The position numbers and the translations under genes are program-made. A DNA stretch of 64,000 nt from a virus. Taxonomy: Duplodnaviria > Caudoviricetes. The stretch's first letter is position 1. Each line of letters starts with the position of its first letter. This document shows, piece by piece, positions 39,569-42,174 of the stretch. Below the pieces are notes generated by a model. The model saw nothing but the letters and a program-made list of their open reading frames with translations. It ran no database searches and was not told where the DNA came from. Where the stretch lies: the IMG/VR virus record IMGVR_UViG_3300018494_000083; one strand, written 5' to 3'.

Positions 39569-39868
39569 TTATAACATCTTCTTTATGTAATCTGGTATCG
39601 TGGGTATATCACAATCTGCTTTGATATTCTTTTTGGAATTCTTGTCATATGTGATATTAAGTTTATAGCCCATAGTTTTGAGATATGTATTAAGCATATC
39701 TACTGCCCTCGATTTCTCGGAAGGCATATTGATAATAAATCCATCAGTAGGATCATCTTCAAACAAATCACTTGCTCGTCTTCCTTCAGTGGAAGATGCA
39801 TGAGATCTGAGAAAATAGTCCAACGCGTCATAGTCGGCTGACAGCATCAAGATATTCAATTCCTGTTC
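39569..39868 (-). CDS. RNA polymerase beta C-terminal subunit, exon 3
   Basis: Begins EQELNIL, completing an RFGEME-like motif after splicing. Confidence 0.85.
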   Translation of the reverse strand, partial: EQELNILMLSADYDALDYFLRSHASSTEGRRASDLFEDDPTDGFIINMPSEKSRAVDMLNTYLKTMGYKLNITYDKNSKKNIKADCDIPTIPDYIKKML

Positions 39869-40132
39869 CAGTATCTTCATGTAGGTCGTTAATCTACATC
39901 GTCATTTAGACTGCTCTAGGTCGCCCTAGAAGTTGAGACTATATCTTCACTTTATAAGTGTCTACCATTTCCATTTAAGGGATTCTCACCCACTCACTTG
40001 AGCCGTACTCCTGTTGCTCTATTTACGATCGCCGAGCCTAGGGATAGTCGTTGAACGTTACTCTTTCGAGTCTTCGCTGCTGATTGTCTGCTAGAGACTT
40101 CCCAGCAATTAGATAGATAAGGGCTAATGTTA
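39869..40132 (-). mobile_element. group I intron (264 nt, no ORF), second intron of RNAP beta-C gene
   Basis: P1 GGGU/GCCC; core gttcaacgacta and aagatatagtc; terminal G before GAA CAG. Confidence 0.88.
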
Positions 40133-40144
40133 ACCCAAGCGATT
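40133..40144 (-). CDS. 12-nt micro-exon (Asn-Arg-Leu-Gly) of RNAP beta-C gene
   Basis: AAT CGC TTG GGT between two intron cores; yields PDQC-NRLG-EQELN. Confidence 0.82.
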
Positions 40145-40428
40145 CATTATGTTCACACAGGTCGTTAATCTGCGCAGTTCTCTTACGAACTTCTCTATAT
40201 TGCTATAGATGTTCAGACTATATCACCACCCGTTCTGGGTGCATACCATTTCGAATTAAGGGAATTTCACCCGCTCACTTGAGCCCTACTCCTATTGGTT
40301 ATTTCAAACCCGAGGGATAGTCGTTGAACGTTCTCCTTACGGAGCTTCGCTGCTGATTAGGTCTATGACCCTTCCAGCAATTAAATATGTTTGCTACTAG
40401 CTATTCCTAACTAGAGGTGCAATTGCTT
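40145..40428 (-). mobile_element. group I intron (284 nt, no ORF), first intron of RNAP beta-C gene
   Basis: P1 GUGU/GCAC; core gttcaacgacta and gatatagtc; 3' end tgaacataatG. Confidence 0.88.
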
Positions 40429-42174
40429 ACACTGATCAGGGTATGGAATTTTATGTCTTGCTGCCTTGGTGGATTTAATAGGCATTGAGGTTCGAGGATT
40501 GTTCATTGACTTAGAACGTACAGAGAACTTAGTAACAGGTTCCTGTTTAAGTCTCATAATATATTCGTCAGCCACAATTACTTTCTTGATCGTCTTATGT
40601 CGTTCACCATCCTCGTTAGTGTACGTCATATAGGTACGTTCAGGATTAAACTTATCATAGAGCTTGACCATAGTATCGCCATTTACGCAGTACATCGGAG
40701 ACTGGATGATATAGATTCGTCCATCTTCTATCTTCTTCATAAAGTCGATTACTTCATCATTACTCTTGTATGCGAGGTACTCTCTCATGGATGCGGCTTG
40801 TTCAGGGGCAGCAATATCCAAGAAGGAATAGAGATACTTAAACTTTTCGGAAAGAGAATCCATACGAGAGATTCTATCCCTTACAGTTTCAGCAATCCAG
40901 TTCAATTCCATCTCATAAAGCTGACCACTGTTAAGACGACCAAGAACGCCAAGTGCATCGATTCGGATATCAGGCACTACACCATCTTCAGTGCATCCCA
41001 TTTCCTCATCAGAAATGACGTTACTTAATACGGATTTATTACCGTATCTACCTGCAATCTTACATCCTCTACGGAGCTTCTCTATTTTATACATAGTGAA
41101 TTCCATCTGGATATTGGAGAAGATTTTGTCTTCATCTGCATACTTACAAGTAGGGTCGAGGTAGTCTTTTGCCTTCGAATACAGTCTGGAAAGTTCCTCG
41201 GTGTATTTAGAATCTGAATTGATTATCTTCTGGAACTCTTCATAGATTTCCGTATAATACTCAATCAGTCGTCTCATGTAACGCTTTACCTGTGCATATG
41301 CGGGAAGATCAGGTATGTCATCAATCGATTTGTTTGACCAAATATCGATATCTGCGATTACGAAGTTATCAGACATTTGGTATACATCATCGGATGGGAA
41401 AATCTTTCGCAGATTAGAATTCTTCAGATTGAACTGGTCCATTGCCTTGTTCTTTCTTCGAACTGCACAGATTACTGCCTTTTTGGTTTTCTCACCAATG
41501 TCAGGGAACGACTTATAAGTCTCGCTATTACCGTAGATATTCAGAGGAATATCATTATCGTTGATCGGTACATCGCAAGTATCTACATATGTCGTTGCCA
41601 TCTTCTTGGCGAAGCTTTCGGATACAACAACTGCATCCTCAATGGTTTCCTGTGATATCACGTAAACTACCTTGGCATTGACACCATATCGGTAGTTCTG
41701 GTACTCGTCAAAAGACGGTGACATATACATGACTGTGTCTTTTGGAACTGTGTCACCAACTGAATATGAGTCGATAACTTCATTGTTCCATTTATACCCA
41801 TACATCTCGGACAAGTTTCTCACTTCCTGTCTCTGAAGAATTCCGTATTCGTCTTTCTTCGGGTCATAGGTAATGAGAGTATACGAGAATCCAGGGTACT
41901 TCTCAATCTTCTTCACGATCTTGATTTTACTATCTGTCTTCTTATATCCCGTGGAATACTGACCGAACATATGTTCATAGCCGGTAAGCACACCAGGGAT
42001 TTCGGCATGGATAGGAACCAAGCATTGCATCAAGTGAGAACTCAGCATTGTAGCTCTTGCACTTGATGAGTATGAAGAGAGAGATAATAAGCCTATAGAC
42101 AAGGCATCGTCGAGAGAGTCAAGTTCATTTGCTCGATCTCGTATTTCTTGCTCGAAGTAAGCTTTGTTACTCAT
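40429..42174 (-). CDS. RNA polymerase beta C-terminal subunit, exon 1 (spliced product 685 aa)
   Basis: SARATMLSSHLMQ, EDAVVVS, GCKIAGRYGNKSV, GVLGRLNSGQLYE, YIMRLKQ. Confidence 0.9.

Follow-up and report, generated by a model that had tools for sequence, protein, structure and literature searches.

Two Adjacent Group I Introns around a 12-Nucleotide Exon in a Phage RNA Polymerase Gene: Probable Co-Occupancy of an Intron Hot Spot

Group I introns are occasionally found so close together that very little coding sequence is left between them. In a 64,000-nucleotide (nt) stretch of DNA from a virus of the class Caudoviricetes (IMG/VR record IMGVR_UViG_3300018494_000083; here called the window), two such introns are separated by 12 nt of an RNA polymerase gene. 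This locus raises the questions of whether so small an exon can serve two ribozymes, whether it is retained or skipped during splicing, and whether the arrangement has a role of its own or reflects the way in which the introns arrived.

Anatomy of the tandem introns

Five group I introns were identified in the window with Rfam model RF00028, two of which are adjacent on the minus strand. Matches to this pair at 40438-40193 (71.2 bits) and 40164-39914 (73.1 bits) both exceeded the gathering score of 50. Reading along the minus strand, exon 1 (40429..42174; 582 codons) ends with TGT at 40429 and is followed by intron 1 (40145..40428; 284 nt), the micro-exon AATCGCTTGGGT (40133..40144; 12 nt), intron 2 (39869..40132; 264 nt, without P2, delimited from Rfam and folds), and exon 3 (39569..39868; 99 codons and a stop), which begins EQELNIL. 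The tandem totals 560 nt. The micro-exon codons AAT CGC TTG GGT encode N-R-L-G, residues 583 to 586. The last base of each intron is G, and no open reading frame (ORF) was found inside either intron from the ORF list or by reading of the sequence. An earlier note, made from the letters of this DNA alone, had proposed the junctions TGT/AAT and GGT/GAA and an NRLG exon between them; alleles carrying a single intron, which fix the boundary positions at the DNA level, and the protein of intron-less relatives both support these predicted junctions. Boundaries shifted by 1 to 2 nt were rejected by inspection, as they lost the terminal G, altered the protein, or introduced a stop codon.

P1 of intron 1 pairs exon GUGU with the guide GCAC, and that of intron 2 pairs micro-exon GGGU with the guide GCCC (40124-40121), in both cases with a U.G pair at the splice site. 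When the whole tandem precursor was folded, P1 formed with a probability of 0.86 to 0.89 in intron 1 and 0.99 to 1.0 in intron 2. P1 of intron 1, together with an AUU able to form P10 with micro-exon nt 1 to 3, occupies 40417..40432 on the minus strand. The 3′ ends of the two introns are AAUG and ACUG. Core helices P3, P4, P6, P7, and P8 were intact; when the introns and their alleles were compared (eight sequences in two related groups), 98.9% of cells were paired and 10 pairs had changed on both sides. Both introns thus combine a score above threshold, a P1 with U.G pair plus terminal G, and a covarying core, in agreement with the two complete intron cores described earlier. This sequence evidence confirms a 12-nt exon flanked on each side by a complete group I intron.

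Subgroup IA2, to which the T4 td and Twort-type introns belong, is characterized by an extended P9 region and by two additional stem-loops, P7.1 and P7.2, located between P7 and P3. Stem-loops were predicted between P7 and P3 in the tandem introns, as was a P9 tail with three hairpins, and the pair probably belongs to this subgroup.

Gene calling splits the interrupted gene into a truncated 587-amino-acid (aa) gene and a 103-aa orphan, as had been foreseen, and public gene calls are identical. The orphan ORF starts at an intron ATG at 39880. In-frame ATG codons for exon 3 are supplied by intron 3′ ends in the window (39880-39869) and at two other loci (L017 2094 and L029 3247), giving orphan ORFs of 103 to 104 aa; they probably arise incidentally, through conservation of the intron 3′ end.

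The window also has ORF-less group I introns, all on the minus strand, in a UvsX/RecA-like gene (43151-42735; 417 nt, between LG and E codons), in a family B DNA polymerase gene (31658-31295; 364 nt), and in a gene read as gyrB from the motif K-G-L-G-E-M-N-P (63433-63133; 301 nt). In other strains the recombinase gene carries a second intron upstream that leaves a 21-nt exon (L009 2710-3393; also L008, L010, L014, and L023-L025), and an HNH gene is present there in L014; the window gene is without this second intron.

Host gene and spliced product

Exon 1 contains Pfam domain PF00562 and shares 37% identity (tblastn) with the beta C-terminal subunit of the AR9/PBS1 non-virion RNA polymerase (nvRNAP). 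An intron-less public homologue, P0002, matched chain C of AR9 structure 7S00 (7s00_C; E value, 2.5e−101; residues 36-647), and AR9 was the sole solved structure matched by a profile of the C-terminal region. A UvsX-like recombinase gene lies on one side and an NAD-dependent ligase gene on the other, the same order as in AR9. By homology and gene order, the host gene is that of an AR9/phiKZ-type nvRNAP beta C-terminal subunit (beta-C). Near-identical proteins are encoded on contigs of up to 262 kb, and the source is therefore an uncultured AR9-like jumbo phage. The samples behind these contigs were presumably ruminant gut metagenomes, judging from their names.

Comparison with intron-less homologues had been put forward as a check and was carried out. 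Removal of both introns yields a protein of 685 aa that is colinear with P0002 (685 aa) and differs from it by two substitutions. Across 80 full-length homologues, the micro-exon columns hold I/N/V, R/K (78/80), F/I/L, and G (79/80), and an E three residues past this G is present in 78 of the 80. The AR9 structure has VRIG at the position, and some homologues read IRFGEME. These columns agree with the earlier reading of NRLG as the equivalent of the RpoB motif QRFGEME; the direct bacterial RpoB alignments ended before the motif. We take the NRLG-E region to correspond to bacterial RpoB QRFGEME (R-F-G-E-M-E), a last step that draws on general knowledge and is reasonable given the IRFGEME homologues.

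Four intron combinations in near-identical genomes

Loci from the same phage (exons ∼97% identical) displayed all four intron combinations: no intron at seven loci (L008 and L023-L028), intron 2 only at three (L009-L011), intron 1 only at three (L017, L029, and L030), and both introns at eight in addition to the window (L012-L014, L016, and L045-L048). These counts refer to fetched loci, reached through proteins chosen for look-up, and represent neither a random sample nor frequencies. A metagenome scan added five loci, none with both introns readable. Scans of viral_contigs identified no relative, and among cultured phages there was no match covering 80% of the tandem.

At both sites, base −1 was T whenever an intron was present and never when it was absent, with no exception. 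At site 1 the occupied codon was TGT and the empty codon TGC; at site 2 they were GGT versus GGC, GGA, or GGG. A T at this position is what P1 needs and also what co-conversion during homing would deliver, since exon bases near the insertion site travel with a homing intron (PMC2988022). Intron alleles from the same site were 93 to 98% identical, whereas introns 1 and 2 shared 73% core identity and stood no closer to each other than to the window's other introns, in recA, polB, or gyrB (69 to 76%). Deeper branches of the intron tree were without support.

Mobility and origin of the pair

Although the window copies lack an endonuclease gene, occupied and empty alleles with exon co-conversion were found, and intron-encoded endonuclease genes were present at five other loci (L029, L030, L031, L035, and L061). 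In L029 and L030, intron 1 takes a 921-nt form whose L1 loop encodes a NUMOD4/HNH protein of 203 aa (PHROG 59 for the L029 HNH; E value, 5e−24). Site-1 introns with a homologous HNH (65% identical) occur in related phages at ∼60% protein identity. Site 2 is occupied in L061 by an intron with a different HNH, located in the P6 region, and in Listeria phage LPJP1 by an intron without HNH. L033 and phage Machias use a third site within these 12 nt, located 8 nt past site 1. These observations mark the motif as a hot spot, and the tandem is best explained as co-occupancy by two separate elements.

Two side observations concern these alleles. The LPJP1 site-2 intron (L003 4124-4541) is an unannotated, 418-nt group I-like sequence below the Rfam gathering score, and the GenBank annotation of LPJP1 shows a truncated rpoB and an orphan ORF. 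The HNH-bearing intron 1 of L029 has a guide (CGAUU ahead of GCAC; L029 2960-2975) that complements five bases of the window-type micro-exon, AAUCG; the exon of L029 itself is AACAG, and the L029 P10 suits the other allele better.

In all likelihood, the tandem consists of two independently acquired group I introns, four codons apart at a hot spot, that are spliced in either order with mainly inclusion of the exon. Each intron would have arrived through endonuclease-driven homing that co-converted the exon bases close by, and its endonuclease gene would have been lost afterwards. Each would fold as its own ribozyme and follow the usual guanosine-initiated two-step splicing, whichever goes first, and given the mismatch of P1 and P3 between the introns, the main product should keep the exon and give the 685-aa subunit. 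The micro-exon would then be a by-product of hot-spot crowding, with no function of its own. The single-intron alleles could also have come about by loss or recombination.

Splicing order and exon skipping

The earlier note had assigned the micro-exon a double role, as 3′ exon of intron 1 and as P1 strand (GGGU/GCCC) of intron 2, and from this suggested that splicing order may be constrained. Pairing and folding bear out the double role: nt 1 to 3 (AAU) would form P10 with the AUU guide of intron 1, nt 9 to 12 are used in P1 of intron 2, and five bases are free. The suggested constraint is not borne out. Because the introns use different, nonoverlapping ends of the micro-exon, pairing imposes no order. 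Removal of intron 1 first gives an RNA like the intron-2-only allele, and removal of intron 2 first gives one like the intron-1-only allele, so that both intermediates resemble natural single-intron alleles. A steric effect on order is conceivable.

Skipping would join TGT to GAA and, as had been pointed out, delete four residues in frame; by arithmetic the product is 681 aa. Skipping is described as proceeding through a chimeric ribozyme or with the first junction serving as a distal 5′ site (PMC10136302). Pairing energies bearing on these routes were calculated as simple duplex energies, which ignore tertiary structure and protein helpers. Exon 1 paired with the intron 2 guide at +0.6 kcal/mol versus −6.0 for the micro-exon, and a chimeric P3 between introns 1 and 2 came to 0.0 kcal/mol versus −3.4 and −5.9 for the introns' own P3 duplexes. 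The same calculation for introns I2 and I3 of Twort orf142, used as a control, gave a cross P1 of −3.3, equal to the cognate −3.3, and a chimeric P3 of −6.7 against −8.9 and −9.1 for their own. The interchangeable P1 and compatible chimeric P3 of Twort-type skipping are thus not found in the window pair. For intron 1, P10 discriminates weakly between the true and distal 3′ sites (−6.9 versus −5.0, or ∼2 kcal/mol). Skipping in Coxiella takes place between introns of different subgroups, so P1/P3 mismatch is no guarantee against it (PMC10136302). We expect mainly exon inclusion in the window pair, with skipping disfavored rather than excluded. The 681-aa product would lack the near-invariant R and G and would probably be inactive; nothing suggests that it is used, and on the cross-pairing energies the possible inactive isoform that had been envisaged is not supported as a meaningful product.

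Comparison with known systems

A close phage parallel in layout is the skipped exon between I2 and I3 of Twort orf142 (Landthaler and Shub 1999, as cited in PMC10136302). Like the window pair, I2 and I3 are back-to-back, ORF-less phage group I introns flanking a short exon, are invisible in the annotation (RefSeq), and have a similar core and 3′ end (57 to 69% identity with the window introns). They differ in having an exon of 23 nt (measured in NC_007021) rather than 12 nt and a structural protein rather than an RNA polymerase subunit as host gene product, and in skipping with an identical P1 target and compatible P3, whereas P1 and P3 are mismatched in the window pair.

Intron-split RNA polymerase genes are known from the AR9-like jumbo phages AR9, Machias, Madawaska, and MarsHill (bioRxiv 10.1101/2020.12.14.422802). 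The nvRNAP beta-C gene of Machias (GenBank join, six exons) is the same gene as that of the window and likewise has closely spaced group I introns that vary between relatives; Machias has an intron in the same motif, as LPJP1 does at site 2. Its exons in this part of the gene, as read here, measure tens of nt, in contrast to 12 nt in the window, and AR9 has no intron in its beta-C gene. A further intron hot spot in this gene lies near G-R-Y-G (∼residue 377) and splits the gene in relatives (the P0157-P0170 cluster; L002, L007, and L004).

Short exons between tandem group I introns have also been described in Coxiella 23S (34 nt; PMC10136302) and in phages phiNIT1 and SIOphi (PMC11878797). In placozoan mitochondrial cox1, a 1-nt micro-exon lies between two group IB introns, and both splicing intermediates were seen (PMC5436844). 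There, as here, conserved coding sequence is stranded between two independent group I introns; the placozoan case is organellar, of subgroup IB, a single nucleotide long, and confirmed by RNA sequencing. The introns of T4 td and nrdD are homing introns with HNH endonucleases and exon co-conversion (PMC2988022). The window family resembles them in that some alleles carry an endonuclease gene in a loop outside the ribozyme and nearby exon bases move along with the intron; unlike them, the two window introns have no ORF, and the HNH proteins of their alleles are putative endonucleases. In a limited literature search, no published description of a 12-nt exon in this beta motif came up. The arrangement is a known one, of which the window tandem is a tight case with no sign of a regulatory switch.

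Alternative explanations

An alternative that shares the same origin but is unlikely holds that skipping is substantial or that order is obligatory, for steric or kinetic reasons, so that the 681-aa subunit without NRLG is frequent. The pairing segments are just 5 nt apart, the two introns have long identical core blocks in common, and a skip keeps the frame; moreover, skipping is known across the 23-nt exon of Twort orf142 and the 34-nt exon of Coxiella 23S (both according to PMC10136302) and in SIOphi (PMC11878797). The Twort introns, however, have identical P1 targets and a stable chimeric P3, and the corresponding energies here are unfavorable or nil. Ueda et al. found that differentiated splice-site sequences almost ended stepwise skipping (PMC10136302), and even with the 1-nt placozoan exon both intermediates were detected (PMC5436844). 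It is far less probable that the tandem is a selected regulatory device in which late transcription is tuned through an inactive or dominant-negative subunit. That the skipped residues include a near-invariant R and G, and that the two-intron haplotype is common among the fetched loci, would suit such a device, but strains ∼97% identical do without one or both introns, in related phages three distinct positions within the 12 nt are each occupied by single introns, and a search for conserved spacing or a regulatory element found none.

Mis-assembly or local duplication of a single intron, as an explanation of the tandem, is largely refuted and has very little probability left. It draws on two short contigs, L015 and L040, in which half of an intron from this locus is joined to the 3′ part of another intron and which show that faulty joins or recombination happen at such repeats. 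Against it, the same 560- to 561-nt insert was recovered from several samples through ENA assemblies (L013, L014, L016, and L045-L048) and, truncated inside intron 2, in JGI contig L012. In each intron, moreover, P1 is matched to that intron's own exon, and tandem duplication was rejected on the 73% identity between introns 1 and 2. In L015 (2630-2900) and L040 (2459-2780), 5′ sequence of intron 2 or of intron 1 is followed by the 3′ portion of another intron and a foreign exon; these joins are probably mis-assemblies at shared intron blocks, the alternative being real recombination between introns.

A recoded exon block around the insertion sites

Intron-less alleles (L008 and L023-L028) are separated from all intron-bearing alleles by 18 fixed differences in the 2,055-nt gene, 17 of which fall in gene nt 1710-1791. 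These 82 exon nt span 39836..40465 on the minus strand, introns excluded. All 17 changes are synonymous, leaving the protein unchanged there. The 100-nt bin concerned is 23.6% diverged versus 0 to 4% in all other bins, and the rest of the gene is 2 to 3% diverged between these alleles. Its 20 to 26 differences in 90 nt equal or exceed the number expected at synonymous saturation (19.3 ± 3.1). Codon usage log likelihoods of all block versions (−30 to −36, versus −28.8 ± 2.7 expected) did not discriminate a foreign version. Import from a sampled relative is unlikely because other species differ in amino acids there. The sequence pattern would fit either two old alleles that homing has kept separate or a recoded allele with immunity to the endonuclease. 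More tentatively, and with considerable doubt, the motif may be a long-contested homing target at which the old synonymous recoding of 82 nt makes intron-less alleles immune to the resident HNH, with the two exon versions held as a balanced polymorphism in an otherwise freely recombining gene. The mismatch of P1 and P3 may likewise have been selected so that an essential exon escapes skipping.

Biological significance

Recognition of the tandem corrects how an essential polymerase subunit is annotated, since gene callers divide it into a truncated protein and an orphan. Four intron combinations in near-identical genomes, with a tandem of 560 nt, form a compact natural test set. Since pairing rules predict inclusion here and skipping in Twort, the choice between inclusion and skipping by adjacent ribozymes becomes testable. 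The saturated synonymous block, if its reading is true, would be a natural case of escape of a host gene from a homing endonuclease.
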